From a virus: a stretch of DNA of 64,000 nucleotides. The position numbers and the translations under genes were made by a program. Below the pieces are notes generated by a model. That model was not told the origin of the DNA and did not search any database. It saw only the letters and a program-made list of their open reading frames with translations. The stretch lies in the IMG/VR virus record IMGVR_UViG_3300035180_000254. One strand, 5' to 3'. Below are positions 31,341-61,711 of the stretch, in pieces. Each line of letters begins with the position of its first letter. Position 1 is the stretch's first letter.

Positions 31341-31435
31341 ATCTCTATATAGGAATAATTTCTTCTACTTAATACTAATTTAATTTTCTGTAATTGATAA
31401 TTTAATTTTATAAGTATAAGTATATAAGTATATAG
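31341..31435 (+). repeat. AT-rich island, left copy of an inverted pair (partner 61617-61711)
   Basis: Ordered blocks ATCTCTATATAGG, TCTACTTAATACTA, TAATTGATAA, TATAAGTATAAG and GTATATAG recur in the reverse complement of 61617-61711. Confidence 0.8.
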
Positions 31436-31444
31436 AGGGAGAGC

Positions 31445-31672
31445 TTACGTTTTGCGCAGGCCGGAAACGATCCAGGCTGCAGTGAGAGTGATGACCCAAG
31501 CAATCGCGCCGTACATGGCAATGAGCGCCGCTTCATGTTCGTGATGCAACGACCATTGTGTGCCGCAGATGAACGCGACGAAGCTGGCCCACAGGATGCC
31601 GAGTTTTGCGCTCGGTGTGGATGAGTAGAGGCTGAATGCAGCAGTGAGGGAGCCGATGGCCGTGAGTGTGAT
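31445..31672 (-). CDS. small 3-TM membrane-protein-like ORF lacking a canonical start codon (possible pseudogene or non-canonical start)
   Basis: The frame ending at TAA 31447-31445 reads ITLTAIGSLTAAFSLYSSTPSAKLGILWASFVAFICGTQWSLHHEHEAALIAMYGAIAWVITLTAAWIVSGLRKT, with strong GC at third positions. The frame is open up to 31714, with no ATG/GTG/TTG before a late CTG. Confidence 0.35.
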   Translation of the reverse strand: MTLTAIGSLTAAFSLYSSTPSAKLGILWASFVAFICGTQWSLHHEHEAALIAMYGAIAWVITLTAAWIVSGLRKT

Positions 31673-31814
31673 CGACGCATGGTTTCCATAGGTGAACCTA
31701 AATAGTTTGGGGCTTTACGCGGCCCAGTTTATTAAAAAGTGGGCCTGAACGCCAGATAGGTCAGCAAATAAGCTACCGGCATAATCTAAACTCTAAAGCA
31801 GATCGAATACGACC

Positions 31815-32201
31815 ATGGACGATTTTCAAAACTCACAGATACCGCAGCCACCAGTGGTGTTGCAAAACCGTCGGGTCAACGACCCGCTATCACCAGTAAT
31901 TGAACTGGTGAAACAAATTCACGCCAACCAGATCGCACTGGACGCAAAACTCTCTAAAGGTCTGGGCGACCAGACGATTGAGCTGGCTACAGCAATTGCC
32001 ACCCTCATGAAGGACAGCTTCCCTGAAGGCGACCCTGATGGGCACCGCCGCTACCACGAAGCCAGCATCAAAGCCGCTGAGGAGCGCGCCAAGTTCTGGG
32101 CAGAGCTGAAGGGCAGCGTCGTCAAGTGGGGAGTCGTAGGCGTCCTGACATTCATCGCAGGAGCAGCTTGGAAAGCATTCTTACTGGGACCTAAGCCATG
32201 A
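31815..32201 (+). CDS. membrane-anchored protein upstream of endolysin (holin/antiholin candidate)
   Basis: 128 aa with a single C-terminal TM (WGVVGVLTFIAGAAWKAFLL). ATGA overlap with the endolysin gene. Confidence 0.4.
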   Translation: MDDFQNSQIPQPPVVLQNRRVNDPLSPVIELVKQIHANQIALDAKLSKGLGDQTIELATAIATLMKDSFPEGDPDGHRRYHEASIKAAEERAKFWAELKGSVVKWGVVGVLTFIAGAAWKAFLLGPKP

Positions 32202-32815
32202 CACAACGTACCGCAGATGAATGGGCCGACATCCTCACCAAGTGTGGTGTGACCGAGCCGACTACCGCCCTATGGGCGCCGGTGTTCGCCGACGTGTTCA
32301 GCCACTATGACCTCAGCCAGGGTGACACCGAACTCGACGACTTCTTGGGTCAGGTGCTGCATGAGAGCGCACACCTGACACACCTGAGCGAGAACCTGAA
32401 CTACAGCGCAGAGCGTCTGATGGTCGTATGGCCTCACCGCTTCCCCACGCTGGAGATGGCCAAGCAGTTTGAGCACAAGCCCGAGCTGCTAGCCAACATG
32501 ATCTACGGCGGGCGCATGGGCAACGTGAACGCTGGCGACGGTTGGAAATACCGTGGCCGTTCGCCTATCCAAATCACCGGCCATGACAACTACGCCCACG
32601 TGGGCGACCTGATGGGTCAGGACCTGGTGAACATGCCTGAGCTGCTGGAGCAGCCGCGCTTCGCACTGGAGGCATGTGTCCTGTGGTGGGAGGCCTCGAT
32701 ACCGGATGACATCTTGGGCGACCCCGAGAAGGTCACTAAGCGCGTGAACGGCGGGCTCATAGGCCTGGCTGATCGTGAGCAGATCACCAACGAAGCACGG
32801 GAGGCACTGGCATGA
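32198..32815 (+). CDS. endolysin, glycoside hydrolase family 19 (chitinase-like lysozyme)
   Basis: LGQVLHESAHL, IYGGRMGN and YRGRSPIQITGHDNY match the GH19 signature [FHY]GRG[AP]xQ[IL][ST][FHYW][HN][FY][NY]. Confidence 0.85.
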   Translation: MTQRTADEWADILTKCGVTEPTTALWAPVFADVFSHYDLSQGDTELDDFLGQVLHESAHLTHLSENLNYSAERLMVVWPHRFPTLEMAKQFEHKPELLANMIYGGRMGNVNAGDGWKYRGRSPIQITGHDNYAHVGDLMGQDLVNMPELLEQPRFALEACVLWWEASIPDDILGDPEKVTKRVNGGLIGLADREQITNEAREALA

Positions 32816-33084
32816 GACTGAAGACATACCTGATTGCACTGGCCTTTATCTGGGCGTTCATCGCGTTCAGCAACAAGAGCCACGCACAAACACTCGACCC
32901 ACTCAAGGACTACCGCTATGCAGGACAAGTTGTACGAGCGACTGATGGAGCCACTGCCCGATCCGCCGTCTTCAATATGCAGTGGCTTCCCGACGCAATT
33001 AAATCAGCCAAGGGACCCTTTACCAAGGACCACTTCGAACGACGGGTCTATGAAGGCCACGCCCTTAGCAAAGGCTGTCCTTGA
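32812..33084 (+). CDS. secreted/periplasmic small protein
   Basis: N-terminal signal-like MRLKTYLIALAFIWAFIAFSNKSHA-Q. Confidence 0.55.
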   Translation: MRLKTYLIALAFIWAFIAFSNKSHAQTLDPLKDYRYAGQVVRATDGATARSAVFNMQWLPDAIKSAKGPFTKDHFERRVYEGHALSKGCP

Positions 33085-33085
33085 C

Positions 33086-33298
33086 ATGGAACCTATTCGC
33101 ATCAGCGATGTGGACATTCACCACCCGTTGCTTCTGCCGGAAGCACGTATCGGTTTGGCCTTATCAAAGGACAAGGTAGAGCACTACATCTCGAAAGGGA
33201 TGGTGAAGGAAGCACAGGGGGCGGGCAAGGTCACGATGATCATGTTCCAGGCCCTCATCGGTATCAACGACATCGACACAGGATGGGGAGAACTGTAA
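33086..33298 (+). CDS. hypothetical protein
   Basis: 70-aa ORF starting at an ATG just after the upstream stop; the track lists a longer out-of-context start at 32834. Confidence 0.5.
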   Translation: MEPIRISDVDIHHPLLLPEARIGLALSKDKVEHYISKGMVKEAQGAGKVTMIMFQALIGINDIDTGWGEL

Positions 33299-33660
33299 TG
33301 GGTAAATTTTTGAGCACCTTGGCCGTGGAACAGGTTAACCCTGACCAAGGTACGTGGCGGCTGACACAGCCGCTGTCCTTCCACTCGATCTTCGCTGGCG
33401 TCCTGACGGTGCCCGCAGGATTCGTCACGGACTTCGCTAGTGTGCCACGCATCCCGATCATCTTCGACGTGCTGGGCGACAAGGGCCAGGCCGCAGCAAC
33501 GCTGCATGACTGGCTCTACGCGAAGCCGCACCCGCTGGAGACCCGCGAGCGTGCAGACGAGGTGTTGAAGGAGGCCCTGATTGCTCAGGGCATGGACGAC
33601 GCCGAGGCATCACTGATGTTCCTGGGCGTGCGCCTGGGCGGGGAGAGCCACTATGAGTGA
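33298..33660 (+). CDS. DUF1353-like phage protein
   Basis: TAATG coupling. The motif GFVTDFASVPR...LHDWLY is typical of the DUF1353 family, as I recall it. Confidence 0.6.
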   Translation: MGKFLSTLAVEQVNPDQGTWRLTQPLSFHSIFAGVLTVPAGFVTDFASVPRIPIIFDVLGDKGQAAATLHDWLYAKPHPLETRERADEVLKEALIAQGMDDAEASLMFLGVRLGGESHYE

Positions 33661-33910
33661 ACGCAAATGGTGTGTGATGGACCTGGTGGTCGACCACCAG
33701 ACCGGCAAGCTGCGGGAGACCGCGCTATGGTCCAACATTGGCAAGGCCACGATGACCTGGGCCTTTATCTACACGGTCTTCTATGCCAAGGGCAGCTTCA
33801 GCGAGTTGCTGTGGGCTGCGTACGGCTCCATCGTGGTCTGCCACGAACTGGCCGCGCGCTACTTCAACCAGCAGCAACAGAAGCTGGACAAAGACACGCC
33901 CAAGCCATGA
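33653..33910 (+). CDS. holin candidate (two TM segments)
   Basis: 85 aa. TM1 ATMTWAFIYTVFYA, TM2 LLWAAYGSIVVCHELAA, and a charged C-terminus. Sits directly upstream of Rz. Confidence 0.5.
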   Translation: MSERKWCVMDLVVDHQTGKLRETALWSNIGKATMTWAFIYTVFYAKGSFSELLWAAYGSIVVCHELAARYFNQQQQKLDKDTPKP

Positions 33911-34398
33911 TCGCCGCGATCACCGCCTTCTTTGGCAAATTCAAGTATGTCTTCGACATCGCAGCCATTGGCGGGTTGATCGCAGCCCTTGCCGTGGGCA
34001 TACACCACTACGACGCAGGACAGCGCGCAATTGGAGCAGCCGACATCCAAAAGCGCTGGGACGCAGCAGAAAAGCTGCGCGCCGAGAACGAAGCCAAGGC
34101 CACCAAGCAGCTTCAGACCACTATAGACGCACAGCGGAGCCAGACCAATGCACAAATCACAACCCTCAATACTTCTCTCGCTTCTGCTATTGCAGGGCTG
34201 CGTGACCGCCCCACAAGGCCAGACGTGCCCAACCCTACCAGCTCTGGAACGGGATGCACGGGGGCACAGCTTTTCCGGGGAGATGCAGAATTTCTTGCAG
34301 GGGAAGCTGCCCGCGCAGACAGGCTCCAAGTCCGACTCGACGCCTGTTATTCAGCCTATGACAAGGCCCGTGAAGCCGTGAATGGCTCTAAGCCATAG
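33907..34398 (+). CDS. i-spanin (Rz-like)
   Basis: ATGA-coupled start at 33907. N-terminal TM (IAAIGGLIAALAVGI), followed by a coiled-coil periplasmic region. Contains an embedded lipoprotein ORF. Confidence 0.65.
   Translation: MIAAITAFFGKFKYVFDIAAIGGLIAALAVGIHHYDAGQRAIGAADIQKRWDAAEKLRAENEAKATKQLQTTIDAQRSQTNAQITTLNTSLASAIAGLRDRPTRPDVPNPTSSGTGCTGAQLFRGDAEFLAGEAARADRLQVRLDACYSAYDKAREAVNGSKP
34148..34381 (+). CDS. o-spanin (Rz1-like lipoprotein) embedded in the +1 frame of Rz
   Basis: MHKSQPSILLSLLLLQGC is a lipobox-like signal followed by a Pro/Thr-rich mature part. The ORF lies entirely inside 33907-34398. Confidence 0.55.
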   Translation: MHKSQPSILLSLLLLQGCVTAPQGQTCPTLPALERDARGHSFSGEMQNFLQGKLPAQTGSKSDSTPVIQPMTRPVKP

Positions 34399-34502
34399 AA
34401 ATCAGTCATAGCGGGCCGAAACCCGCATGCCTAGGGCCTTGCAGCGGTAACGAGGCACCTTGACATGGTGACCTGGGACCAGACCCGCACGGGCGCGCTG
34501 CT

Positions 34503-34528
34503 GCTGCGTACTCGGGTGAATACGCAGC
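34503..34528. terminator. hairpin in the convergent intergenic zone (possible bidirectional terminator)
   Basis: gctgcgta (34503-34510) pairs with tacgcagc (34521-34528), 10-nt loop. There is no clear U-tract. Confidence 0.3.
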
Positions 34529-34558
34529 GGGCAGCGGCTTCATGCAGGCCTAGTGACT

Positions 34559-35221
34559 TCACTGTAGCGCAACCTTCGGTGCGGTCAGTGCGTACTCAGC
34601 GCCGAGCACACTCAGCAGCTGTTCCGGGCCGTGTTCGGGGAACAGCTTCATGTAACGCTCCAACACGACGTTGTCTTCCTCGCCGTTCCACATCTTGCGG
34701 TACGTGCCTTCCTTGTAGCCATTGGCCTGGCGGAACAGGTTCAGCACGTTCTTGCCGAGGTAGATTTCGTACAGCCGGTCCCAGGTCAGGTCGAAGCGGA
34801 CCATGAGCTGGGCGAACGCCGGGCCGTTGAGCTGGCGCTGAATCGCCGCACTGCCAGCCAGCAGATCAATCAGCTTGCGGGTCTCCACACCTGTGATCTC
34901 GCCGAACGCGTCCGGGTCTTCTTCCAGCTTGGTGAAGTAGGCAGCGATCTCGGTGGCCGCAGCCTCGAAGTCGCCTTCGTGCAGCGCCAGGATGTGGCTC
35001 ATGGCGAAGTGCCAGATGTCCACCAGTTCCAGTTGCATCTGCCCTCGGGTGTAGTGGCCGTCAGCCTTCCACCATTTCCAGCCTAAGCCGTCCAGCATCT
35101 CGGCGGCTTCCATGTAGATGGCGCGATACCAGGAGTAGCCAGCGGCCATCCAGTCAGGGTTCACCACCTGGTTCAGCTTGTCTTGTAGTCGGAGCATGTC
35201 CGATATTTGTTGACGGATCAT
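34559..35221 (-). CDS. dimeric dUTPase / MazG-like nucleotide pyrophosphohydrolase
   Basis: Motifs WYRAIYMEAAEMLDGLGWKWWK and ELVDIWHF, as in the all-alpha dUTPase family. ATGA-coupled start at 35221; the track start at 35242 is an alternative. Confidence 0.6.
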   Translation of the reverse strand: MIRQQISDMLRLQDKLNQVVNPDWMAAGYSWYRAIYMEAAEMLDGLGWKWWKADGHYTRGQMQLELVDIWHFAMSHILALHEGDFEAAATEIAAYFTKLEEDPDAFGEITGVETRKLIDLLAGSAAIQRQLNGPAFAQLMVRFDLTWDRLYEIYLGKNVLNLFRQANGYKEGTYRKMWNGEEDNVVLERYMKLFPEHGPEQLLSVLGAEYALTAPKVALQ

Positions 35222-35646
35222 GCTGCGTTCTCGTTGAGCCACAGGATCAGACCGACCTTGTCTGTGGGCACGTCCACTTCAGTCTCAACGACTTCCTTGC
35301 GCGCGAAGCCCTCTTCATAGAGCGCAGCGCGGGCCTTCACGCCCTCAGCTTTGCTGCCGACCCAGAGGGTCTTGGTTACCTTATCGGCAAGGCTACCGGA
35401 TGCCTTGATTTTGTACAGTCTCACGTTTTTCACTCCTTGGTTAAGTGCCCTACGGGCGTCGCGGACCACGCCCAGAAGCGCGTGGTCCATGTCCTTGGGT
35501 GATACCGATAGCGCTATGTGGCGCGGCGGTACACCATCTCGGCTGACCGACAGCACGGTGTGCGTGCGCTGGCGCAGCACCTCCACCTTCACGTCATCTC
35601 CGAGGGCTTTGATGGCCAGTAACGCGCGACGGTGGATGGCTTTCAT
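35218..35646 (-). CDS. hypothetical protein
   Basis: 142-aa ORF. Confidence 0.65.
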   Translation of the reverse strand: MKAIHRRALLAIKALGDDVKVEVLRQRTHTVLSVSRDGVPPRHIALSVSPKDMDHALLGVVRDARRALNQGVKNVRLYKIKASGSLADKVTKTLWVGSKAEGVKARAALYEEGFARKEVVETEVDVPTDKVGLILWLNENAA

Positions 35647-35659
35647 TGCGTAGTCTTAT

Positions 35660-36265: not shown

Positions 36266-36295
36266 ATACACCTCGTAATAAAAGAATCGGATCTA

Positions 36296-42416: not shown

Positions 42417-42974
42417 CTATTTGCCGGTAAGGTGTTTCCACGTCTTACCGTTCTTTATGTTTTGGACCGACGACTGAGTCAGCCCATAGGCGTTAGCAAT
42501 GACGCGAGTCAGCCTTATGTCGTCGAGAATCGCCATCACTTGCTGTTCGTTGAGCTTGGCCGAAAGATTGGCCTCGCCCTTAGCACCGTATGCACGGCCT
42601 TTTTCTCGGAGGTCGCGCATGTTGTCTTGATGCGTGCCGAGTCGTAGATGCTCAGGATTCACGCACCCTGGGTTGTCGCACTTGTGCAGAACGTGCATGC
42701 CTCTCGGAATTGGCCCATTGTGCATAACCCATGACCCACGGTGAGCATTTTTCTCGCCGTGGGCGGTCCATATCCCATACCCGCAAGTTACTGTTGCCCC
42801 GATCCATAACCAGCAGTTGGTTATTGAGTCGACCTGGTAACGTTCGCGGAACGGTACTCCGCGCAAGTTCGCTGATTTAAGCGGGTCGCCATATTTCATA
42901 AACGCGCGGTAGTGTTTTTTACAGTACCCGCGACCGACCGACGGCTCGCCGCAAACAGAGCAGGGTGTACGCAT
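42417..42974 (-). CDS. HNH homing endonuclease
   Basis: HVLHKCDNPGCVNPEHLRLGTHQDNMRD (HNH_3 type) plus a C-terminal helix-turn-helix-like tail. Own AAAGGAG RBS and an upstream TATAAT. Sits directly downstream of the polymerase gene. Confidence 0.8.
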   Translation of the reverse strand: MRTPCSVCGEPSVGRGYCKKHYRAFMKYGDPLKSANLRGVPFRERYQVDSITNCWLWIGATVTCGYGIWTAHGEKNAHRGSWVMHNGPIPRGMHVLHKCDNPGCVNPEHLRLGTHQDNMRDLREKGRAYGAKGEANLSAKLNEQQVMAILDDIRLTRVIANAYGLTQSSVQNIKNGKTWKHLTGK

Positions 42975-43012: not shown

Positions 43013-45973
43013 TTATTTACTATAGTTAGAGGCATGCCCTCCTTCGCATGCGAGCGGGATGTCGGGGCACCAGCTGGGCGCTGTGCTCATGACCTTGGTC
43101 ATCAGCGCGAAGCACTGCTTGGCCTGAGCGGTCTTGGGCAGCGCCACAGCTTCGTCGTGTGTGGTCATGACGATGCGGTACTTCTTGCGAATCTGCAGCA
43201 TCTGCCAGGCCACGATGATTCGCGCCAGGGCCTGCACGATGTTCTCGCACAGCAGCCCGCCGTAAATCTTCTTGCGCATGTCGCCGGACTTGTAGGACCA
43301 CTCGTCCCAGCCCTTGTCACTGACGGCCTTGCGCAGCTCGGGGTACTTGAGCGACATGCCGTTAGGGAGCCAGATGGTCTCCTTCTCCCATGTGATCGGG
43401 CCATGACGACCGGACCGGCCAGCGGCCATGTCTTCGATGATCTTGGCACAGATGTCCCAGCCGCCTTTGATCTTGTGATTCGTTCGGCGGTACGTGTTCA
43501 CGATCTGCACGCAGCGGTCCAGCTCGAAGAAGATCGGCGGGCCACCGAGGGCACCCTTGGCCAGGGTCATCTGGAACTTCGGTGCGCCCATCTGGAAACC
43601 AAGTCCGAGAACGCAGTTATGAACGATGACCGGGCCGTCATCAGACATGACTGTGAAACAATGGTTAGGCCCTGCGTTTGCGAGATCGTAAGTTTGCGTT
43701 GTCTGCTTCGAGATCACGAATGCGTTGTTCGAGGTCTTCGATTCGTCGCTTGTTTCCGGTGTTGACAGACTTAGTGGCGAATCTGACGTTGCCTGGGCAG
43801 TACCCGCTGTTGTTGTCGATTCGATCAAACTCAAGCTCAGGTACATCCCATCCAGGTAATGTCTGGACATACCGCAGAAACTCTGCTCCGTCGTTGCACC
43901 AGCCAGGATGAACTGCGATGCCGCGTCGCCCATAGTGCTTATACGAGGCATTGTTCGGGTTACTACAGCGCGCAATTGCTGATGACAAGCGGTTAAGCAG
44001 GCGAGTGCGATGCTCGTCATTCGGCATAGCATCCCTGTAGACCCAGTAGCGTTTTGCGCTTGCCGCAATTTTTGCGCAAGCGTTGCATCGCGTAGAGCGT
44101 CCTGCCTTAAGGCTGCTGACATAGACCATAGACTCGGCCCCGCAAGAGCACTGGCAGACAGGGCGATACCCCCACGGCTTGCCGTCTTTTGACGTGTAAT
44201 GCTCCCACCGTACGACGGTAAGTTCGCCGAACTTAGTGCCGACCGGAAAAGGGAACGGTCGGTAAGGACCTCTTGCCACTCCAGCCACCCACGTTCCGTC
44301 AGGATTTCGTGGTCCGGCGTGGCGGATATTCCCCGGTATGACAGGGTCGTCCTCACTCCTTGCTTTACTAGCCCATCGTGCGTTACCCATGATTTTCCAT
44401 CCCATAGCAAATCGTTAGATCGTATTTGGGGTATAGACTTAAGACCATGGTTTGTCAATACGATGGTGTCTGGTCCGAGGCAGACCTTGCCCACGAAGCG
44501 TTCGGTCTTGTCTTCCTTGGTGATCGGCCGGCCGTAGATCAGCGTGGCGAAGTTGCAGTAGGCGTCGCTACCGGTGCCAGCGTCAGCCGCACGGAACGCA
44601 GCCATGAGGTCATCCTGACCCCACAGCCAGCCGTTCACGCGGGCTTCGATCTGGCCGCTGTCCACCACGCACATCTGGTAGCCCTTGGGTGCCAGGATGG
44701 ACAGGCGCAGCTCACCACCACGGGTGAGGTTCTGCATGTTCATCTTGTTGTTGCCGCCCCACCGGCCCGTGTGAGCGCGGTAGTAGGCATAGCCCACCGG
44801 CAGACTCATGCCGTTGGCACCAGCCTTCAGGAAGCGTTCTGCGCGCGTAATATTCGTCGTGCTTTTAACCGCAAGACGAGCATCGACCAGCGAGCGGATA
44901 CGATCTTGCTTCGCCGAAATCTTAGGTATGTCCTTGACTTTGTTCGGGTCAAGCGCACCGCGCCAGAGGTCAATGTTCTCGGGGAGCGACGTGAACTCGG
45001 CGTCATCCTTTGCGAACGCGTACGACCATTTATCCTCTTCAGCGACAAGGGCCTTCTCCTCTTTGCTCAGCTTGATATACGCCTTGCTGGGCTTCATGGG
45101 CGGGTCGATGCCCTCGGCCCGCAGCAAGTCAGCGAACTTCTCGTTGGAGCCGATGACGCGCTTGATGATCAGCATGTCACGCTCCTCACCGGTCAGCGCG
45201 CGCTCAGCCGTAGTCTTGAGCACGGTTTTGTCGGCGTAGTAGGGCTTGGGGTCCAGCACTGCATAGAACTTGCGCTTGCGTTCGGCCACCTCGCGCTCGT
45301 ACTCTTTCTGCACGCGCGGGATGTCCACCTTCAGCACCGGGTCGCAGAACATGCGGATGGTCATGTCCACCAGGTCCAGCTCGTCGGCAGGGAACTTGGC
45401 GTGCATCTCCTTGAAGATGGCGTGCGTCAGGTCCACGTCTTGGGCGCAGTAGGGCGTCACCGCCTTGACCAGCTTCTGATCCCAGTCGCCCACGCCCTTA
45501 GTGGTCTCCAGCACGCCGTCGAGCTTGGAGCCCTTGCCGTAGAACTGGGCCACCTCGTCCAGGCTCGCACCAATTTCATTGCTGTGCAGGCCACGGGCCA
45601 TGCTCAGCGTGTCGTAGTACTGGAACGGGACGATCTTGTAGACGTGCGAGAGGATGAAGCCGTCGAAGGCCGTGTTGTGGCAGAGCAGGCTGTGCGTGGC
45701 CCAGTTAATGCTCTGCAACGCGGCCATGATGCGTAGCTGCCCGGTGTACACCTTGGTCGGTTTGTTGCCGATCTTGATGCCCACCATCTGTGCCTTGAAG
45801 CGCTTATCACGTACGTACTCAGACGTGCTGAGTTTGGACAGGGTGTAGTCGCTATCCCAATAGCTTTCGAAGTCAATAGTTACGAGGCGGTTCCAGTCAA
45901 CGATCCCAGGCGTGATGTCCGGGCGGTTAATGATCACCTGTGCCTTGCGGCGTATTGCGTCTCCCCATCCCAT
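43013..45973 (-). CDS. family A DNA polymerase with 3'-5' exonuclease domain, interrupted by an intein
   Basis: Exo I TIDFESY, Exo II HNTAFDGF, Exo III YCAQDVD. Pol motif A VVDSGQIEARV; motif B RFVGKV/CVLGLGFQMG, split by the insertion; motif C TTHDEAV. Probable start at 45973 (TGATG coupling); the track start is 46039. Confidence 0.85.
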   Translation of the reverse strand: MGWGDAIRRKAQVIINRPDITPGIVDWNRLVTIDFESYWDSDYTLSKLSTSEYVRDKRFKAQMVGIKIGNKPTKVYTGQLRIMAALQSINWATHSLLCHNTAFDGFILSHVYKIVPFQYYDTLSMARGLHSNEIGASLDEVAQFYGKGSKLDGVLETTKGVGDWDQKLVKAVTPYCAQDVDLTHAIFKEMHAKFPADELDLVDMTIRMFCDPVLKVDIPRVQKEYEREVAERKRKFYAVLDPKPYYADKTVLKTTAERALTGEERDMLIIKRVIGSNEKFADLLRAEGIDPPMKPSKAYIKLSKEEKALVAEEDKWSYAFAKDDAEFTSLPENIDLWRGALDPNKVKDIPKISAKQDRIRSLVDARLAVKSTTNITRAERFLKAGANGMSLPVGYAYYRAHTGRWGGNNKMNMQNLTRGGELRLSILAPKGYQMCVVDSGQIEARVNGWLWGQDDLMAAFRAADAGTGSDAYCNFATLIYGRPITKEDKTERFVGKVCLGPDTIVLTNHGLKSIPQIRSNDLLWDGKSWVTHDGLVKQGVRTTLSYRGISATPDHEILTERGWLEWQEVLTDRSLFRSALSSANLPSYGGSITRQKTASRGGIALSASALAGPSLWSMSAALRQDALRDATLAQKLRQAQNATGSTGMLCRMTSIALACLTACHQQLRAVVTRTMPRISTMGDAASQFILAGATTEQSFCGMSRHYLDGMYLSLSLIESTTTAGTAQATSDSPLSLSTPETSDESKTSNNAFVISKQTTQTYDLANAGPNHCFTVMSDDGPVIVHNCVLGLGFQMGAPKFQMTLAKGALGGPPIFFELDRCVQIVNTYRRTNHKIKGGWDICAKIIEDMAAGRSGRHGPITWEKETIWLPNGMSLKYPELRKAVSDKGWDEWSYKSGDMRKKIYGGLLCENIVQALARIIVAWQMLQIRKKYRIVMTTHDEAVALPKTAQAKQCFALMTKVMSTAPSWCPDIPLACEGGHASNYSK
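43616..44482 (-). mobile_element. intein (289 codons) in polymerase motif B
   Basis: Begins CLGPDTIVLT (Cys1 at 44482-44480) and has a TPDHEILT block B. Ends YDLANAGPNHCFTV...PVIVHN (Asn at 43618-43616), followed by Cys+1. Confidence 0.8.
43665..44405 (-). CDS. homing-endonuclease-like gene nested inside the intein in a different reading frame
   Basis: 246-aa ORF offset by 2 nt from the polymerase frame. Paralogous to 35660-36265: FGELTV, CQCSCG...CNAC, ARCSNPNNASYKHYGRRGI and DRIDNNSGY blocks. The true start may be internal; the conserved part begins near 44240. Confidence 0.7.
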   Translation of the reverse strand: MGWKIMGNARWASKARSEDDPVIPGNIRHAGPRNPDGTWVAGVARGPYRPFPFPVGTKFGELTVVRWEHYTSKDGKPWGYRPVCQCSCGAESMVYVSSLKAGRSTRCNACAKIAASAKRYWVYRDAMPNDEHRTRLLNRLSSAIARCSNPNNASYKHYGRRGIAVHPGWCNDGAEFLRYVQTLPGWDVPELEFDRIDNNSGYCPGNVRFATKSVNTGNKRRIEDLEQRIRDLEADNANLRSRKRRA

Positions 45974-46173
45974 CAGTTGTCCTCCGGCATGCGCGGGCAG
46001 GGTGCCCAGTGAGTCCAGTAGCGGGACTTGCCGTCCCACTGACTGTAGACAGCCACACCGCCAATACCCAGGAGCTGCAGCTTCACGCCGCGCGGTGTGT
46101 CAAGGCCGATCTTTTGCCAGTAGTAGTCTGTTGACACAGCGACCGTCTGGTCCTTGTTGAGGGTGTGGCTCAT
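45973..46173 (-). CDS. hypothetical protein
   Basis: 66-aa ORF whose stop overlaps the polymerase start. Confidence 0.55.
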   Translation of the reverse strand: MSHTLNKDQTVAVSTDYYWQKIGLDTPRGVKLQLLGIGGVAVYSQWDGKSRYWTHWAPCPRMPEDN

Positions 46174-47959: not shown

Positions 47960-48667
47960 CTAGACTCCCACAGTGCAGTGCTCAGTGTTCTTGTACGGGC
48001 ACCACCTGCAACTAAATTTGTTAGCATTGGTCGGAAAGTCATCACACTCGGTGATCGACATTCCCTGGTTGTGAAAGTTTTGTTTGAAGCGCAATGCTTG
48101 GCTACGTGTGAACTGACGTTCAACGATCTCGCCATGGTCGATGTACCAGTCAGCTACGGTCACGTGTTCGAGTTGGGGGTAGCGCAGGAACGTCGAGACT
48201 GCGTAGAGTTGAAGCTGCTGCGCGTGGACGATTTCATTCCCGTAGATACGTCCAGTTTTGAAGTCGATCAGACTCGCGTGAGTCTTCGACCAGTGGACGA
48301 GTGCATCCACCTTCATACGCACCCAGCCAGACTTCCAGGGGGCGACATCCCAACCCTTGTCGAAGGCCCACTCCTCTTCCATTTCGACCATGCCATCGGC
48401 ATACATCGAGCGCAACAAATCCATGTGCATACTAAAGTGCTTCTCAGCCTCTGGGCAGAGTGCATCATGCTCATTGCGGACGTAAGCCTCAGCGTTCTCA
48501 TGCACTCGGGTGCCACGGTCATTGCCGTGCTCGGTCTTACCAGGAGGCAGAGGGCGTTCAGGCTCTGGTATCTTGTTAATGTGCTTCAGCATGAACATGC
48601 GTTTGCACTTCGAAAAATCCTGGAGTTTCGAGAACGACCAGCTGCTGGTTTTGACTTGAGTGGTCAT
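47960..48667 (-). CDS. Cas4/RecB-like PD-(D/E)XK exonuclease with a 4-Cys cluster
   Basis: N-terminal Cys (FSKCKR), core IDFKTG, QLQLYA (QxxxY), and C-terminal CRWCPYKNTEHC. Confidence 0.75.
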   Translation of the reverse strand: MTTQVKTSSWSFSKLQDFSKCKRMFMLKHINKIPEPERPLPPGKTEHGNDRGTRVHENAEAYVRNEHDALCPEAEKHFSMHMDLLRSMYADGMVEMEEEWAFDKGWDVAPWKSGWVRMKVDALVHWSKTHASLIDFKTGRIYGNEIVHAQQLQLYAVSTFLRYPQLEHVTVADWYIDHGEIVERQFTRSQALRFKQNFHNQGMSITECDDFPTNANKFSCRWCPYKNTEHCTVGV

Positions 48668-49152
48668 GTTGGTGTGGTAGGGTGGTAAATACGTTTGGCT
48701 GCGAGGTACGCTTCATGCGCTACTTGCGGGCTGTTAAACCGGCCAAGAAAGTGGTGTTTGCGCTGAGCGACGATTTGAGCCACCCACTGGCAAGTACGTG
48801 CTTCAAAACTAACGCCTTGGTAACCAGTGGTATTGCGACTAGGAATTCCACGGTTGTGCTGATTCATAGAAGGCGTCGCATCGCGCAAGTTCTTAATCCT
48901 GTTGTCCGCCTTCACACGGTTCTTGTGATCAACCTCATATGTCGGCCAGACGCCATGGACGTAGAACCAAGCAAGGCGGTGTGCCAGATAGCGTTTGCGG
49001 TCAATGCCAATACGGAGATAGCCATTTGCCATGACATCACCGACTTCATGACCACGAACTGCGGTCGCCCTCCGGCGCTTAAAGATGCCCGTCAGTGGGT
49101 CGTAATCTAAAACAGACTTAAGACGTTCGTGCGTTAGAATCTGACTGCTCAT
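48664..49152 (-). CDS. HNH-AP2 homing endonuclease
   Basis: EVDHKNRVKADNRIKNLR (HNH) followed by YQGVSF...WVAQI...LGRFNSPQVAHEAYLAA (AP2-type DNA-binding domain). Probable start at 49152, with a GAGGGG RBS. Confidence 0.8.
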   Translation of the reverse strand: MSSQILTHERLKSVLDYDPLTGIFKRRRATAVRGHEVGDVMANGYLRIGIDRKRYLAHRLAWFYVHGVWPTYEVDHKNRVKADNRIKNLRDATPSMNQHNRGIPSRNTTGYQGVSFEARTCQWVAQIVAQRKHHFLGRFNSPQVAHEAYLAAKRIYHPTTPT

Positions 49153-49237
49153 GGCGCTTGTTCCCCTCTGACAAGTGGTGTGTGAAGTGGTGCTCGGGAG
49201 GTTCCCGCCTTCCGAGCATTGCGCCATTCTACACTCG

Positions 49238-49677: not shown

Positions 49678-50784
49678 TCAAATCCTTATCCGCACGTGCT
49701 CACCCCACGGCGGGACCACGTTGGTTGTCATACACCAGAGCACCGGGTAGTCGGGCTGCTCAGAGGGGAAGGGGCCGTAGCCGTCGGTCAAGTAGATGAA
49801 CGCGGCGGGCTTGTGGTCATGATCTTCGAGCCACTGGAACGGCGGGTGGAAGTCGGTGCCACCGCCACCATGCGGCTTGAACTCGGGCAGGCCACCGCCT
49901 TGCTCAATCTCGTCCACGTGCGCCACACGGGAGTCGCAGTAGATGTTGATCAGCTTCTCGGGGTGGGTGCTCTCGAACGCGGCAGTGATCTCGCTGCCAA
50001 ACGCGGCCAGGGTAGGGCCGTCGATGGAGCCGGAGGTGTCGATGCCGGTGGCCAGCAGGCCCATGCTCTCACTATGCAGCGCAGGTAGGCAGTAGCCGTA
50101 GGGCACGTACTTCTTGTTCAGACGGGACCAGCTGTAGTCGTTGCGGCTGATCTCGGTGATGAAGCGCTGCAGCACCTGTTGCCAGGGCACCTGAGGCTCC
50201 TCGTTGATCTCGACGAAGCGCTCCATGCCCTTGGGCATCTTGCCCATAACCTTGGCACCGGCCACGGCTTGTTGGACGTTGATCTCCCACTCCATGTCCA
50301 TCTCGACGGTCTCACCCGCCGATTCGCTGGCGTCCACCACCTGGTCGAACTGTTCCAACTTCTCGGACTGCTCCATATCCTGCATGAGCAGATCGTAGAT
50401 GTGCTCGGTGGACATGTCCTTGTACTTGGCGTCATAGAGCCAGTTCTGGCCAAGCTTGAAGCCAGCTTCCTTGATGACCAGGTTGATCATGTAGTCACCG
50501 GCAAAGTTCCAAACCTTCGGGTTACGGCCGTGGCGACGCGTGGTGTGGTTCGAGACGCAGTGCATGATCTCGTGGACGAACGCAGACTGGGCCAGGTCCT
50601 TGGGCAAGGTCAGCACGAAGTCCGGGTTGTAGAAGATGTGCTTGCCGTCCACGCACAGCGTCGGAATCTTGGTGTTCTCCACCAGCTTCAGGTGCATGGC
50701 CAAGCGGCCAAAGAAGTAGTGATCCAGCAGCAGCGCCACGCGAGCGGCGATGAGGTGGTCAAGCGCTTTCTTGTTCATCTTCAT
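49678..50784 (-). CDS. VWA-domain protein with an N-terminal HExxH metallopeptidase-like domain (DUF2201-like)
   Basis: FVHEIMHCV in the N-terminal half. MIDAS-type GIDTSGSI in the C-terminal half. Confidence 0.7.
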   Translation of the reverse strand: MKMNKKALDHLIAARVALLLDHYFFGRLAMHLKLVENTKIPTLCVDGKHIFYNPDFVLTLPKDLAQSAFVHEIMHCVSNHTTRRHGRNPKVWNFAGDYMINLVIKEAGFKLGQNWLYDAKYKDMSTEHIYDLLMQDMEQSEKLEQFDQVVDASESAGETVEMDMEWEINVQQAVAGAKVMGKMPKGMERFVEINEEPQVPWQQVLQRFITEISRNDYSWSRLNKKYVPYGYCLPALHSESMGLLATGIDTSGSIDGPTLAAFGSEITAAFESTHPEKLINIYCDSRVAHVDEIEQGGGLPEFKPHGGGGTDFHPPFQWLEDHDHKPAAFIYLTDGYGPFPSEQPDYPVLWCMTTNVVPPWGEHVRIRI

Positions 50785-56281: not shown

Positions 56282-56298
<17 letters not shown>

Positions 56299-56656: not shown

Positions 56657-56697
56657 TTCATTTTCCTTGGTTAAAATAGTTGGAAGTGGTGTAGTGG

Positions 56698-57241: not shown

Positions 57242-57474
57242 TTCCGATTCATCAATTCGTACGTCCCGCGCGAGTTCGTGAACTCGTCGTGGAAGCGGCT
57301 GATCACCTCTTCAGTCAGCTCCTCGTCGCTGGCGTTATTCAGCAGGAACGCAGGGAACTGGGTGAAGTCGGGCTCGGGCGGCTGGGCTGCGCGGTCCACC
57401 AGGAAGGCGATCAGGCAGATGAGCACTGTCACCACGACGATGGCGACGATCCAGAGGTTGTTTACGTAGTCCAT
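57238..57474 (-). CDS. small membrane protein
   Basis: N-terminal TM LWIVAIVVVTVLICLIAFLV. Confidence 0.55.
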   Translation of the reverse strand: MDYVNNLWIVAIVVVTVLICLIAFLVDRAAQPPEPDFTQFPAFLLNNASDEELTEEVISRFHDEFTNSRGTYELMNRK

Positions 57475-57770
57475 ACAGGTGCCTTTCTATCGCCATGCCA
57501 GGCGTTCCATAGGGTGTCGCTGGCCTTGCGGCGTATGTGAGATTTGGGTTTACGGAACTGCTGAAGGACCGTGATGCCTGACACCTTGCTCAGGGCACGC
57601 ATGATCCGACCGCAGTCAATGCAGTGGTCGTAGCGTCTACGACCGTGGTCGTGTTTGTTGAACGACAGAGACGGTTTGCTCTCGCCGCAGCAGATGCACT
57701 GGCGCAGCTTGACCTCACGTCTCAGGTTCGCTAAAGACTTAGAGGTCGGTGCCATTTCACGGACGTGCAT
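57462..57770 (-). CDS. zinc-ribbon protein
   Basis: CICCG...x23...CIDCG, in a basic protein of 102 aa. Confidence 0.55.
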   Translation of the reverse strand: MHVREMAPTSKSLANLRREVKLRQCICCGESKPSLSFNKHDHGRRRYDHCIDCGRIMRALSKVSGITVLQQFRKPKSHIRRKASDTLWNAWHGDRKAPVWTT

Positions 57771-58278
57771 CCACGAAGGCCACCAGCTTGTCGATATCAG
57801 CCTGGGTATCGGCGATCACCTTCAGCAGCTTGGCGGGCTTGGCCTTGATCTTATTCAGAGTTTCGATCTGGGCTTCCAGTTGGCCGATCTTTCGAAAGAT
57901 GTCGCCGTCGCTGAGCGTGGCAGCGTCAGCACCGGCGATGAAGGTTTTGGTTTCGATGACGGGGGTCTTTTCGGACATGGTGGTTTCTTCCTTGAGGTTG
58001 TCGTAGATTTCTTTGGTGGTTTGGACGCTGGTCGGTTTACCGACGTGGTAATACTTCATGGTGCCGACATCAAAGGCGACCAGTCGGAGGTAGCTCAGCT
58101 TGCTGATCACGCCGTCGGCGGGACGCTGCAGTTTCTCAGCCATCTCTTTGAGAGAGCTGCCCATAAAGTACAGCTCTTTGAGTGCGTGCAGCTCTACGCT
58201 TGTCCAGATCTTTCCGTGCCGGGCACGGATGATGTTGTCGTTATGTCCGAAGGACGTGTCAAATGTTTCTTGGGTCAT
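57757..58278 (-). CDS. putative DNA-binding protein (Myb/GcrA-like HTH at the N-terminus)
   Basis: WTSVELHALKELYFMGSSLKEMAEKLQRPADGVISK pattern, with a coiled-coil C-terminus. Confidence 0.45.
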   Translation of the reverse strand: MTQETFDTSFGHNDNIIRARHGKIWTSVELHALKELYFMGSSLKEMAEKLQRPADGVISKLSYLRLVAFDVGTMKYYHVGKPTSVQTTKEIYDNLKEETTMSEKTPVIETKTFIAGADAATLSDGDIFRKIGQLEAQIETLNKIKAKPAKLLKVIADTQADIDKLVAFVDARP

Positions 58279-58736
58279 GCTGTACCACTCAAGAGTTGTT
58301 GAAGTTGCTTGAACCGCTCACTTTGCTTCTCAGCAGTGGTGAACTGTTCTTCGATCTCGACTGCGCAGCTGTCCAAGTCATCGGCCAGGTTGCGCAGGCG
58401 TGCGGCCAGGTCGCCAATCTTATCGAGCGGTGACTTGACCGGTGTGGGTTTGGGTGCTGTAGTTGGTGTGACCATGGCTGTAGGTTTCTCCGGTTTAACT
58501 GGTGCGCGCGAGTAGGCGCTGGGTTTGCTGCCACGTTCCAACACGAGGCCCGCATCGGTCAGGTGCCGCAGGCATCCTTGCAGCGTGCGGAAGTCGGGGA
58601 TCATGTTGGTGCGTGCCAGCTCGGCCTGAATCTGCTGCGGTGTCCACATCTCTTGGATAGGCACCGCTGCGTAGACCTTCTTGGCTGTTGCTGTCATGCC
58701 GTTAATGAGCGACTTGAAGCGGGCCTGGGGCATCAT
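58275..58736 (-). CDS. putative winged-helix DNA-binding protein
   Basis: TATAKKVYAAV...QIQAELAR...LRHLTDAGLVLE resembles a wHTH recognition region. Confidence 0.45.
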   Translation of the reverse strand: MMPQARFKSLINGMTATAKKVYAAVPIQEMWTPQQIQAELARTNMIPDFRTLQGCLRHLTDAGLVLERGSKPSAYSRAPVKPEKPTAMVTPTTAPKPTPVKSPLDKIGDLAARLRNLADDLDSCAVEIEEQFTTAEKQSERFKQLQQLLSGTA

Positions 58737-58915
58737 GGCTTAGGCTCCTTCACGACGTGTGCGATGGGCATGCACAGCGGCGTGAGCTTTTCGATTGCCC
58801 ATTCGAGCGCTGCGATTTCTGATTTGTCCCACGTGTTGTCGTAGGGCCTGGCACGCAGGAATTCGACGCGTCGGCGCATCGTGCGTAGGTGCTTGGCTGG
58901 ACCTGCTCCGCTCAT
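58733..58915 (-). CDS. hypothetical protein
   Basis: 60-aa ORF. Confidence 0.5.
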   Translation of the reverse strand: MSGAGPAKHLRTMRRRVEFLRARPYDNTWDKSEIAALEWAIEKLTPLCMPIAHVVKEPKP

Positions 58916-58922
58916 ATGAGTT

Positions 58923-59102
58923 TCATCCGATCTGTTTTAGAGTTAAGAATTGTACACGCCGCGAAGCCGTGCGAACGAGAACTGAGCACTGGCGTACGAA
59001 CCGGTCGTGGCTTGGGTAAGCGCAGTCATGGCTGTCTACAACGGCGTAATAACGTGGAGCACAACCCGTGCCCTCACGCACAGGGATCATGACGAGCTTC
59101 AT
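58923..59102 (-). CDS. small hypothetical protein (59 aa, below the track threshold)
   Basis: GGGAGG RBS 5 nt before the ATG at 59102. MKLVMIPVREGTGCAPRYYAVVDSHDCAYPSHDRF... Confidence 0.4.
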   Translation of the reverse strand: MKLVMIPVREGTGCAPRYYAVVDSHDCAYPSHDRFVRQCSVLVRTASRRVQFLTLKQIG

Positions 59103-59140
59103 CCGAGCCTCCCACGTAGCCGTGCTTTCAGTGCATCATG

Positions 59141-61519
59141 TCACTTCACCTTTGTCTTCTTCGCTACCGGGAAGTGGTCAGCGATGTATTTGTGGAAGTT
59201 ATTGGTGTCCTTCCACTGCACGCTCAGGCCGTTCACTGACTTGTTGTTCACCCACACGACCTTGGTGTGGACGCGGTGGTGTTTGAGCAGTGAGGTGAAC
59301 TTGTTGGGCGAGACTGGGATGTTGCCCACCACATACTCGAAGATCACACGCAGCTCGTCACGTGCGATGTTGCACTTGCCATCAGGCGCCGTGCGGCCGA
59401 TCAGATTAGCGATCACCTCACGGTAGTCCTCCACCTTGTTGGACATCATCGCGTTGCGTGTGTAGCTCTGGTCGGTAGGCAGCTGGTCAATGAAGAAGCC
59501 GAAGTTACCGTCCAGCATGGCGCTTGCCACCGTGTCGATGGACGACTCGGAGATGGAGATCATGGTGTCGCGGTCGGTGGTATGGATCACCTCGCCAGCC
59601 TTGGCCTCGTCCAGGGAGTAGGACAGCAGGTAGTCGTGAAACGCTTGCAGCTCCTTCTCGATGGTCTCCAGTTCCTTGTCGCTGATCGCCAACTTGCCAG
59701 GCTGGTAAGCACCGACGTTGAAGCGGCGGTCATTCTTGTCGATCAGCACCGGGTCTGTCATGTTGGACATGAGAATCCAGTTGCTGTAATTGCGTGCTTC
59801 CATGGCGTTGCTGTACATAGCGCGCATGGGGACGAACTGCTCGGTGATGAAGTTCTTGAGCTTGGCCATGACGCCCTTCTCGTTTTGCAGTGCCTTGATC
59901 TGCACCTCATCCACGAACACCAGCAGCGAGTTCTCCATGAACTGGTTGTACTTGTCACCCAACTCCTCCATCCGGCGGCTAGCTACGTGAGCTGCACCGA
60001 ACAGAGGGCGCAGGATGTTGTTGGTCAGGATGCCCTTGCCAGTCCCTTGGGTGCCATGCAGTACCCATGCTGTCTTGGTGCGGTCGCGCTTCTGGAGCAC
60101 GAATGCGGTCCAGTTGAGGAAGTGCTCAGTCACATCCACATCCAGGCCCAGCGCATGGTGCAAGACCTTGAAGATGGTGGGTGGGCACTTGGTCACCTTG
60201 CGTGCTGTTGCCTTCATATAGGGGCTAGGCACGAACTTGTTGATGGTTTTGTTGGCTACATCGACCCGGACGTTATCCATTGGGTCAAAGACCAGGTCCC
60301 ACTCAGGTATGTAGTCACCCAGTGGTACACCGTACTGGAGAGCGAAGTGTCGCAGCTGGGTTTCGTTTTTGGCTGGTGTGATGTCGAGGACATCGGAAGT
60401 GTTGTCATAAGTACCACGGTAATACACACCAGACTTGCGGTCACAGAAAGCCAGATAAGTAATGCCCGAACTTGACGTGCGAAGATTTCCTGACGAGGTG
60501 ATCTGCAGCCAGTAGTCGGGGAGCAGTTCTTTGGTGAGGTAGCTTGGTTCCCCCTTAAACGAGTGGATGTAGTCCGGGCGATCTTCCGGGTGGTAGTACG
60601 CCCAGGAATCACCACCGTTCAGATTGAAGTAGACGAAGCCGCGTTCCGTCTTCATCTCGGTGATGGATGCCTCGTCCGGCTTGAGCATGACCTCGGCATT
60701 GCCCACGATCTTGTAGGAGAACTTGCGCTTGGGCAGGAATGCTGCCTCACGCAGTTCAGCGATGCGGTCATGGCTGAGCTTCTTGTTCTTCTCGGTGGTG
60801 TTGATAGCACTGGCGAGTGCCAGCGTGTCGTACTTGCGTTTCTCCAGCTTGATACGTGGGTTCTTGCCCATCGGGTCCTTGATGCCTTTGAGGATGGGAG
60901 GCGCGATATAGATCAGCTTGTCGTTCTGGCATGCGCTCACATCCAGTGGCCAGGAGAGGGAGTTGCCAGTCTTGGTGAGCGTCATGGCTTCACGCAACAT
61001 GGGCACTTCGTGGTTCTTCTGGATCAGCCACTGCTTGATCAGCGGTGCGGTGTAGGCCTTGTCCAGCATCATGAAGACGTGGGCACGTATCTTCTTGTCA
61101 GAGACACCATATGAGGCAGACCACTGAACGATATATGAAATGTCTTCGAGACCGAGTTCCTTGAGGAACAGGTCAATAGTGAGCGGGGTGCTGAGTGTTT
61201 GTCCACCAGGTGTGGTCACGGTGATGTGCTCGGGCAGTCCGTCCAGGTCCAACACAAGCCACTCGGTGGGATCGTTGGTGTTGGTACTACCTGCACGAGA
61301 CTCTTTCACGAGGTCACGTGAGATGCTGCCCTTGAGCACACAGTTGCCACGCGCTGCGTGCTTGCTCAATAGGGACTCAAACTGGGTGAGGTTGTTAGCC
61401 ACTTCACGGTGGCTGGTGAACTCCCAGGTCATGGGATATGGAGTCTTTGTCAGGTCTCCGTTCACTTTTGAATATTGCTTGGTCAGAGGCTGGTCTGCCT
61501 GCAGAAACACGAGGTTCAT
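59141..61519 (-). CDS. bifunctional AEP primase-polymerase / SF3 (D5-like) helicase
   Basis: N-terminal WLVLDLDG (DxD) and IRAHVFM (His motif). Helicase Walker A HGTQGTGKG in the C-terminal half. 792 aa. Confidence 0.8.
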   Translation of the reverse strand: MNLVFLQADQPLTKQYSKVNGDLTKTPYPMTWEFTSHREVANNLTQFESLLSKHAARGNCVLKGSISRDLVKESRAGSTNTNDPTEWLVLDLDGLPEHITVTTPGGQTLSTPLTIDLFLKELGLEDISYIVQWSASYGVSDKKIRAHVFMMLDKAYTAPLIKQWLIQKNHEVPMLREAMTLTKTGNSLSWPLDVSACQNDKLIYIAPPILKGIKDPMGKNPRIKLEKRKYDTLALASAINTTEKNKKLSHDRIAELREAAFLPKRKFSYKIVGNAEVMLKPDEASITEMKTERGFVYFNLNGGDSWAYYHPEDRPDYIHSFKGEPSYLTKELLPDYWLQITSSGNLRTSSSGITYLAFCDRKSGVYYRGTYDNTSDVLDITPAKNETQLRHFALQYGVPLGDYIPEWDLVFDPMDNVRVDVANKTINKFVPSPYMKATARKVTKCPPTIFKVLHHALGLDVDVTEHFLNWTAFVLQKRDRTKTAWVLHGTQGTGKGILTNNILRPLFGAAHVASRRMEELGDKYNQFMENSLLVFVDEVQIKALQNEKGVMAKLKNFITEQFVPMRAMYSNAMEARNYSNWILMSNMTDPVLIDKNDRRFNVGAYQPGKLAISDKELETIEKELQAFHDYLLSYSLDEAKAGEVIHTTDRDTMISISESSIDTVASAMLDGNFGFFIDQLPTDQSYTRNAMMSNKVEDYREVIANLIGRTAPDGKCNIARDELRVIFEYVVGNIPVSPNKFTSLLKHHRVHTKVVWVNNKSVNGLSVQWKDTNNFHKYIADHFPVAKKTKVK

Positions 61520-61616
61520 GATGTCCTTTCAGAAAGAGGGAGTCTACACTGTCTAAAACAGAGCTTAGAGCTATAAGCGTAAGACCAGATCAAAAGACCC
61601 ATTCTCCTCTGTAATA

Positions 61617-61711
61617 CTATATACCTTATACTCTTATACTTATATTCTTATCTTATCAATTAGATATTATTATTTTAGTAGTACTAAGTAGATAAAAACC
61701 TATATAGAGAT
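61617..61711 (-). repeat. AT-rich island, right copy of the inverted pair (partner 31341-31435)
   Basis: The reverse complement reads ATCTCTATATAGG...TCTACTTAGTACTA...TAATTGATAA...TATAAGTATAAG...GTATATAG. It lies about 100 nt upstream of the primase-helicase start. Confidence 0.8.

Follow-up and report, generated by a model that had tools for sequence, protein, structure and literature searches.

Paired AT-rich islands as candidate replication origins coupled to the primase-helicase of KPP25-related phages

We analyzed a 64,000-nucleotide stretch of viral DNA, IMG/VR record IMGVR_UViG_3300035180_000254 (hereafter the window, meaning the whole of this stretch), in which two similar AT-rich islands, L and R, lie about 30 kb apart. 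The window covers most of the genome of a tailed phage found in microbial-mat and sediment metagenomes and lacks 3277 bp of the 67.3-kb circular or circularly permuted whole. Its nearest named relatives are the Pseudomonas phages KPP25 and phiR18, with 43% identity in the primase-helicase. The plus-strand late genes run from the portal gene (274) through the gene of a 2321-residue virion protein (24350–31315), after which comes island L (31308–31472). A short plus-strand block (31815–34398) includes a glycoside-hydrolase-19 endolysin. The minus strand carries a tightly packed replication operon of about 27 kb (34559–61519), the first gene of which encodes the 792-residue primase-helicase, and island R (61565–61744) lies upstream of it. 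Beyond R are a GC-rich hairpin (61780–61804) and then minus-strand early genes, which are separated from the terminase genes by a divergent intergenic region outside the window. The two transcription directions converge at 34398/34559, as an initial annotation made from the sequence had placed them.

That annotation had described the islands as inverted copies of each other, extremely AT-rich in a GC-rich genome, and both properties were borne out. The local alignment of L (plus strand) with the reverse complement of R scored 76, against a mean of 25.5 (standard deviation 4.3, maximum 58) for 5000 dinucleotide-preserving shuffles of R, none of which reached 76 (z 11.7); with the flanks added the score was 81. 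The islands are about 75% identical across about 100 nt. In 80-nt windows the GC minimum is 12.5% in L and 17.5% in R, compared with 59.8% GC for the window overall, and GC falls below 20% at only two places in the 64 kb, 31308–31472 and 61565–61744. The 3277 bp beyond the window hold no third island, so that the 67.3-kb genome has only two. Low-complexity AT-rich DNA aligns easily, and two AT-rich intergenic stretches without any shared function might look alike by chance, but chance similarity is already refuted by the shuffle controls. Position and layout are moreover kept across about 100 relatives and the repeats co-vary with a protein, as described below, and we give this explanation practically no weight.

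Read toward the primase-helicase gene, the parts of the element follow in one order. Inverted copies of the repeat core in the flank come first, followed by a C-rich run with the box CTCTATATAG, a pyrimidine-rich half with degenerate inverted repeats, an A+T core, three tandem repeats, a second box and, at the end, more inverted repeat cores. Island L, in which 80-nt windows stay below 33% GC, has on the plus strand an outer-left flank with the inverted core GTCTTAGG (31316–31323; CTTA is TAAG on the other strand), a left box ATCTCTATATAGG (31341–31353) that reads TATATAGAG on the minus strand and points outward, and the pyrimidine-rich half TCTACTTAATACTA (31364–31377), made of degenerate inverted repeat copies. 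The AT core, a proposed unwinding element, follows at 31378–31408 and includes TAATTGATAA (31391–31400). Next are three tandem TATAAG copies (31409–31428; singly 31409–31414, 31415–31420, and 31423–31428), the outward-pointing right box GTATATAGAG (31428–31437), and an outer-right flank with the inverted core GCTTACG (31442–31448).

Island R carries its parts on the minus strand in the same order. Its outer-left flank holds two inverted cores (61763–61773; CTTA on the minus strand), and its left box is again ATCTCTATATAGG, read on the minus strand (61699–61711). The pyrimidine-rich half TCTACTTAGTACTA (61679–61692) contains one inverted repeat copy, and the AT core (61645–61678) contains TAATTGATAA at 61653–61662 together with two more direct ATAAG copies (GATAAGATAAG on the minus strand). 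The three tandem TATAAG copies span 61625–61644 (61639–61644, 61633–61638, and 61625–61630), and the right box GTATATAG (61617–61624) faces the primase-helicase gene. This gene-proximal box ends 97 nt before the start codon (61519), in agreement with the earlier estimate of about 100 nt, and repeat cores occur also inside the 97-nt leader downstream of R, where two inverted cores, CTTACGCTTATA, form the outer-right flank (61572–61583).

The five shared blocks that had been listed for the two islands were all found at their given positions. They belong to a larger layout with partial dyad symmetry, in which block 2, the pyrimidine-rich half, is a degenerate inverted copy of block 4, in the tandem repeats, and blocks 1 and 5, the left box and (in L, in extended form) the right box, are outward-facing copies of a single box. 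TATATAGAG occurs three times in the window, each time at an island edge. Each island has three tandem TATAAG copies plus 3–7 extra TAAG cores, compared with 2.6 per kb in the window. The period of the tandem repeats is about 8 nt in relatives and 6+8 in the window, and the second box is GTATATAG in the window's lineage and TATAAATCAA..ACTTAG in many others. Block 3 (TAATTGATAA) is common to L and R and is missing in two relatives (L004 and L005) with 86–88% primase-helicase identity. Because it is present in both islands and absent from these relatives, it suggests that sequence has been exchanged between the two copies within the genome.

We also looked for other kinds of element. In single-strand folding the end boxes of L pair (z about −2.4 to −2.8); those of R fail to pair (z +0.9 and +1.2), and a hairpin or cruciform is therefore not shared by the islands. 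Searches across the window with Rfam (gathering thresholds) and ARAGORN found nothing, which rules out a structured RNA or tRNA as far as these two methods can tell.

Megablast found no match for the L region in 50,697 phage records, and relatives were reached through protein searches only. Upstream of the primase-helicase gene, an AT island occurs within 700 nt in 70 of the 85 IMG/VR relatives whose upstream DNA was long enough; almost all relatives with a primase-helicase identity of 52% or more are among them, and hardly any further islands occur in the 10-kb flanks. At the other locus, 15 of 18 relatives have an island no more than 350 nt past the stop of the giant virion gene, and in the remaining ones it lies farther downstream. 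KPP25 itself has exactly two islands, at the two matching places, 26.5 and 58.4 kb. Gene order around both islands is likewise conserved, an outcome of the comparison with related phages that the initial annotation had proposed. Conservation of both islands extends through a large clade of KPP25-related phages from the environment.

The layout is conserved along with the position. A switch from pyrimidine to purine along the strand was seen in 72 of 73 islands, most relatives have triple repeats, and dyad symmetry (left half versus the reverse complement of the right) exceeded z 3 in 41% when compared with composition-matched shuffles. Similar hairpins stand in relatives at the place of the GC-rich hairpin upstream of R, often followed by a T run; that this minus-strand hairpin closes the early gene block is a predicted function, which a terminator scan did not call. 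Two relatives depart from the general pattern. One of them (L127), with R at residue 756 of the primase-helicase, has its island about 2.9 kb upstream of the gene, with the flank GTTGAAC/GTTCAAC, which agrees with the rule for C given below and is not a clean triple repeat. The other (L097) has as its sole island one of a different kind.

The sequence of the repeat differs between lineages (TATAAG, TGTAAG, TGGAAG, TAGAAG, TAGAAC, CAGAAC, GATAGTAAG, TGCTAG, AATTAC, and ATGAGA; CGTAAC in KPP25). Within a genome it is the same: in all five genomes with both copies in hand, the two islands share one repeat, and their alignment scores range from 45 to 106 against a shuffle mean of about 20. In the window the two copies are inverted relative to each other; in KPP25 and two IMG/VR genomes they are direct, and one genome is ambiguous. 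Since the copy at the primase-helicase gene keeps its polarity across relatives, the one behind the giant gene must be that which flips, and in three genomes the repeat-proximal end of the L copy faces the 3′ end of the giant gene. The earlier statement that both islands point into the enclosed segment is thus true of the window genome and is not a conserved feature, the copies being direct in three genomes. The copies lie 45.0% of the circle apart in the window genome and 46–50% apart in the four others.

These orientations bear on the proposal, made in the initial annotation, that the islands are recombination substrates that invert, or once inverted, the 30-kb segment between them. The copies are indeed inverted in the window genome and about 75% identical across about 100 nt, and the similarity of their spacers beyond the conserved motifs suggests some exchange between them. 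The contigs of four metagenomes, however, cross both islands in one arrangement only and contain no inversion junction, although their power to detect rare isomers is low. Conserved gene order around both islands also speaks against inversion, no recombinase was found among the proteins scanned, and in KPP25 and the two other genomes with direct copies recombination would delete half the genome. We consider inversion a very improbable role.

We next describe the protein encoded beside R. The primase-helicase (59141–61519, minus strand) has a DUF5906/superfamily-3 (SF3) helicase core and matches the Pfam DUF5906 and VapE-like domains. AlphaFold models of it have a mean pLDDT (the model confidence score) of 73, rising to 85–90 in the C-terminal domain, and Foldseek matched the model to the C-terminal region of the NrS-1 primase-polymerase (E 2e-17), to poxvirus D5/E5 and to the SaPI5 primase-helicase PriRep5 (E 2.5e-4). 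The last approximately 80 residues are modeled as strand-helix-helix-strand-strand-helix, an order typical of winged helices, and residues 715–782 (59174–59377) have a winged-helix-like topology. Inteins (PF14890) lie inside the primase-helicase of several relatives (P0030, P0038, and others).

Two residues in the first wing strand of this domain, V754 (codon 59258–59260) and W756 (codon 59252–59254), co-vary with the repeat. A repeat with G before AA (GAAG, GAAC) goes with K or R at residue 754, and one with T there (TAAG) goes with V, A, P, or similar; G after AA goes with W at residue 756, and C with R. The match at 756 recurs in at least five separate places of the tree, KPP25 included. 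On a tree built from residues 1–690 only, the base before AA (G or T) and the state at 754 (K/R or other) were concordant in 51 of 54 taxa, with 9 and 7 parsimony changes, and the state at 756 (R or not) agreed with the base after AA (C or not) in all 54, with 6 changes each. Among 20,000 characters simulated on that tree, none reached either concordance (maxima 45 for 754 and 50 for 756). The repeat cores for this 54-taxon test were curated by eye with the protein alignment in view. When they were replaced by blind automatic 4-mer counts, concordance was 47 of 61 for 754, reached by 14 of 20,000 simulations, and 56 of 61 for 756, reached by 7 of 20,000.

The same two positions stood out when all 769 alignment columns were scanned. 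Column 754 ranked first for the base before AA (0.79 of 1.0 bit; next column 0.50) and column 756 for the base after AA (0.56 of 0.61 bit; next 0.33). In the model they lie two residues apart on one wing strand, with pLDDT 85–90. Among the close relatives L013, L092, L014, and L021 the wing differences are point changes and not domain swaps. Linkage alone does not explain the coupling, because the wing is 2.3 kb from the island, beyond the region used for the tree. The coupling of repeat and wing is an observation, as are the duplication, conservation, and layout of the islands, which are a real, functional, conserved, and duplicated cis-element. As far as we can tell, the two-residue correspondence between wing and repeat is new for this primase-helicase family.

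The reading that we favor, and hold to be reasonably likely, is that the islands are two near-antipodal replication origins, each made of initiator-binding repeats and an unwinding element and read by the phage primase-helicase. We favor it on the duplication, conservation, and layout of the islands and on the coupling of the repeat sequence to the wing residues of that protein; binding, melting, and origin firing at the islands are inferred. Each island has a nearly pure A+T core of 30–35 bp, expected to melt easily; three to five tandem repeats (core TAAG, here as TATAAG) lie next to it, inverted copies stand opposite them and in the two flanks, and TATATAG boxes that face outward bound the core. 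The primase-helicase, an SF3 enzyme with a C-terminal DNA-binding domain, would read the repeats with its first wing strand, assemble on either side of the core, open it, and prime DNA synthesis. Island L, after the last late gene, would serve as the second origin or as a second initiator-binding site acting on incoming forks. Island R probably also holds the replication operon's promoter and an autoregulatory operator, as it is the sole non-coding DNA between the early-gene hairpin and the start codon of the primase-helicase. Among the three roles suggested initially (a promoter or regulatory cassette, an origin or unwinding element, and a recombination substrate), that of an origin is best supported, given the co-variation of the repeats with the wing and a layout that matches related origins (PMC9371898).

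Among the closest parallels are the origins of Staphylococcus aureus pathogenicity islands (SaPIs). SaPI origins lie beside the rep gene and consist of 5–6-nt repeats that flank an AT-rich center in opposite directions; they are served by a self-loading SF3 helicase whose C-terminal winged helix reads the repeats, two hexamers are thought to load on either side, and the repeats differ between elements (PMC9371898). The phage element has the same opposed short repeats around an AT center, a position beside the putative initiator gene (R at 97 nt; L lies 30 kb away) and, as its proposed initiator, a self-loading type of SF3 helicase. In SaPI5 the helicase, which has a C-terminal specificity domain, is fused to a primase, and this primase-helicase is a fold match of the window protein. 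Unlike the SaPI origin, the phage element is upstream and not downstream of the gene, has two copies per genome and extra conserved TATATAG boxes, and is found in a lytic-type tailed phage with a 67-kb genome and Gram-negative hosts, and the proteins are only about 13% identical.

A pair of origins is known from Bacillus phage SPP1, in which oriL lies in the initiator gene and oriR in an intergenic stretch of the late region, both of them AT-rich islands with repeats (PMC6316719). The two SPP1 origins resemble the two islands in sharing one build, with direct repeats next to an AT-rich unwinding element, in belonging to a headful-packaging phage, and in their placement at the initiator gene and in the late region. 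Binding of one protein to both sites, part of the SPP1 pattern, is predicted in the window phage from the shared repeats. The SPP1 initiator gp38 differs in being a separate origin-binding protein, unrelated to the window primase-helicase, that needs a loader and a DnaB-type helicase, and the SPP1 origins are about 13 kb apart on the circle, compared with a near-antipodal spacing in the window phage. Primase, SF3 helicase, and a C-terminal winged helix that binds the origin are combined in one polypeptide in alpha of the satellite phage P4 and in ORF904 of the archaeal plasmid pRN1 (PMC2777425). Both differ from the window protein in the type of primase domain and from the window element in repeat sequence and spacing. 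P4 replication needs two separated cis sites, both with the same octamer repeats; its crr is a few kb from ori and not half a genome away. Repeat recognition that changes with lineage has a parallel in the iterons of geminivirus Rep, which are short, lineage-specific direct repeats next to the TATA box in the promoter that drives Rep itself. A few specificity residues of Rep co-vary with them, and the origin overlaps the promoter and operator. Rep is nevertheless an unrelated rolling-circle (HUH) endonuclease that acts on single-stranded genomes in eukaryotic hosts. The element would be of a kind already known, an origin built of iterons and an unwinding element on which an SF3 primase-helicase acts, and would be present twice, as the SPP1 origin is. 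The searched literature on KPP25 and Kochitakasuvirus contained nothing on promoters, origins, or AT-rich regions, and no origin has previously been described in it for the KPP25-related clade.

A different explanation of the same features is a duplicated promoter or regulatory cassette with no origin function. The islands would then be middle promoters under an activator or repressor, with three tandem operator repeats over the −35 region and a TATA-like −10 element, and the primase-helicase or another phage factor would bind them for transcription control alone. R lies between the early-closing hairpin and the tightly packed 27-kb operon, so that a promoter must be in or beside it, and in most lineages GTATATAG or TATAAATCAA..ACTTAG stands a fixed distance after the three repeats, ahead of a conserved leader of about 100 nt. 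Against this, a sigma-70 consensus promoter scan was negative in both islands. The hexamers TTGATA and TATAAG, which had been noted as sigma70-like, are 9 or 15 nt apart and not at the 16–18 nt of a −35/−10 pair, and TTGATA is not conserved, as L004 and L005 do not have it. Neither an RNA polymerase gene nor a sigma factor gene was found among about 45 proteins scanned, which did not include every small open reading frame. Nor did the islands look like phage promoters of the T7 or N4 type: no RNA polymerase family was matched by the proteins scanned, TATATAGAG is confined to island edges, and R is without a significant hairpin.

Relative to its neighbors the L copy flips between lineages, which a lysis-gene promoter could not tolerate; the outward boxes on the far sides would drive antisense transcripts; and it is in a replicative primase-helicase that the repeat-tracking residues lie. 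L does follow the last late gene, 26 nt past the stop of the virion gene, as first described. It does not directly face the lysis cassette, since a minus-strand frame (31445–31711) lies between and the lysis genes start from 31815. The idea of a cassette that co-regulates both arms is at most partly right, and we regard a promoter function alone as unlikely.

A further explanation is that only R is an origin and that L is a second high-affinity initiator site, acting as a fork barrier or a terminus more or less opposite the origin, as a trigger for the switch from circle-to-circle replication to concatemers, or as a cis-acting enhancer like crr of P4. The copies are 45–50% of the circle apart in five genomes, and L is far from the initiator gene and free in orientation. 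In SPP1, the initiator at oriR has been proposed to stall the fork and trigger concatemer synthesis, a precedent for such a site (PMC6316719). Concatemers are expected here, given headful-type packaging genes and an assembly of the phage that exceeds unit length. Yet every part of R's layout recurs in L, the AT core and both boxes among them, and a mere barrier would have no need of these; the spacing may only mirror shared gene order, and the five genomes are not independent. The 45–50% spacing would suit either two origins or an origin and an opposite fork-handling site. We rate R as the only origin as rather improbable. A joint proposal, in which R is the origin, L is the site where the primase-helicase stops or reshapes forks (a terminus or a concatemer trigger), and the 754/756 code predicts origin specificity, is tentative and in our estimate unlikely to hold in all its parts.

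Several observations weigh against two origins read by the primase-helicase. The presumed recognition helix of the C-terminal domain, NKFTSLLKHH, is almost invariant over lineages with differing repeats, so that specificity would have to sit in the wing, which is less usual; the invariant helix before the wing may bind the conserved boxes or the backbone. With the isolated C-terminal domain as query, the best Foldseek match was not significant (E 0.3), most of the weak matches being winged-helix proteins. The blind version of the coupling test was weaker than the curated one, though still significant. Three repeats, a TATA-like box at a fixed distance, and a leader of about 100 nt also resemble an activator-dependent promoter. 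GC skew tracks gene direction and cannot separate the direction of replication from that of transcription. Public RNA runs contained the window in no case, and no contig from the four DNA metagenomes ended at the islands.

The neighborhood of the islands showed further features. The frame between L and the lysis genes encodes three membrane-helix-like segments and ends 8 nt from the right box of L. It has no ATG, GTG, or TTG before codon 56 (the ATG at 31689 is in a different frame), and the contigs of four metagenomes show no indel in it. A relative of this frame was sought at other L-type loci and none was found; it could be a gene with an unusual start, a gene in decay, or no gene at all. 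A motif, TTCGGGGCTATTCGC(T/A)GCG, is kept near the L-type islands of the relatives L035–L045 at a distance of about 200–340 nt, and its GG and GC, about 10 nt apart, recall a sigma-54 −24/−12 site, by likeness only. The window counterpart, TTTGGGGCTTTACGC (31706–31725), overlaps a terminator-like hairpin. In the 2321-residue virion protein (24350–31315, plus strand) there are two zincin-like HExxH motifs, HEVGH and HESMH. This protein has no Pfam match and no PDB sequence match, and only PHROG "virion structural protein" families match it, within its C-terminal third; the idea that it is a virion RNA polymerase is unsupported by these sequence matches.

In the replication operon, 43013–46039 (minus strand) encodes a 1008-residue family-A DNA polymerase with an endonuclease-like insertion (PHROG 93, residues 540–828), and there are three HNH-type homing-endonuclease-like genes on the same strand (42417–42974, 48664–49227, and 49678–50784). 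Contigs of several metagenomes branch at 62347, 62576, and 62950, in the early-gene region, and strain variants therefore differ in the early genes just beyond R. Taken with a large terminase subunit of the Terminase_6 family and a portal of the P22 type, the assembly longer than unit length (L135, JGI 3300036715, a contig of 87.5 kb versus a 67.3-kb unit genome) agrees with a circularly permuted, terminally redundant genome that is packaged by the headful mechanism. A relative (L136) lies in the complete chromosome of Acidovorax sp. T1m (CP021648.1, 2.39–2.41 Mb). Its primase-helicase is 66% identical to that of the window phage, and it has the same TATAAG island and the expected A/W wing residues. 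An IS21-type element (rve and IstB) is inserted among its early genes, and an intein lies in the large terminase of this Acidovorax copy (L136 19–2370). This locus is a clue to the host, pointing to Comamonadaceae, and it hints at one of two things, persistence of some members inside cells or an assembly in which phage and host sequence were joined.

Public metagenomes contain more than 2,500 members of the primase-helicase family, to which the therapeutic-candidate Pseudomonas phages of the KPP25 group also belong. For these phages there is now a prediction at the level of sequence that covers both origins, the protein that would read them, and two specificity residues, a possible route to predicting the replication compatibility of co-infecting relatives. 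The window phage would be a further phage with two matched origin-like sites, which bears on the conversion of circles to concatemers for headful packaging. If the proposal is true, residues 754 and 756 would constitute a simple protein-to-DNA code for origin specificity across thousands of uncultured phages.

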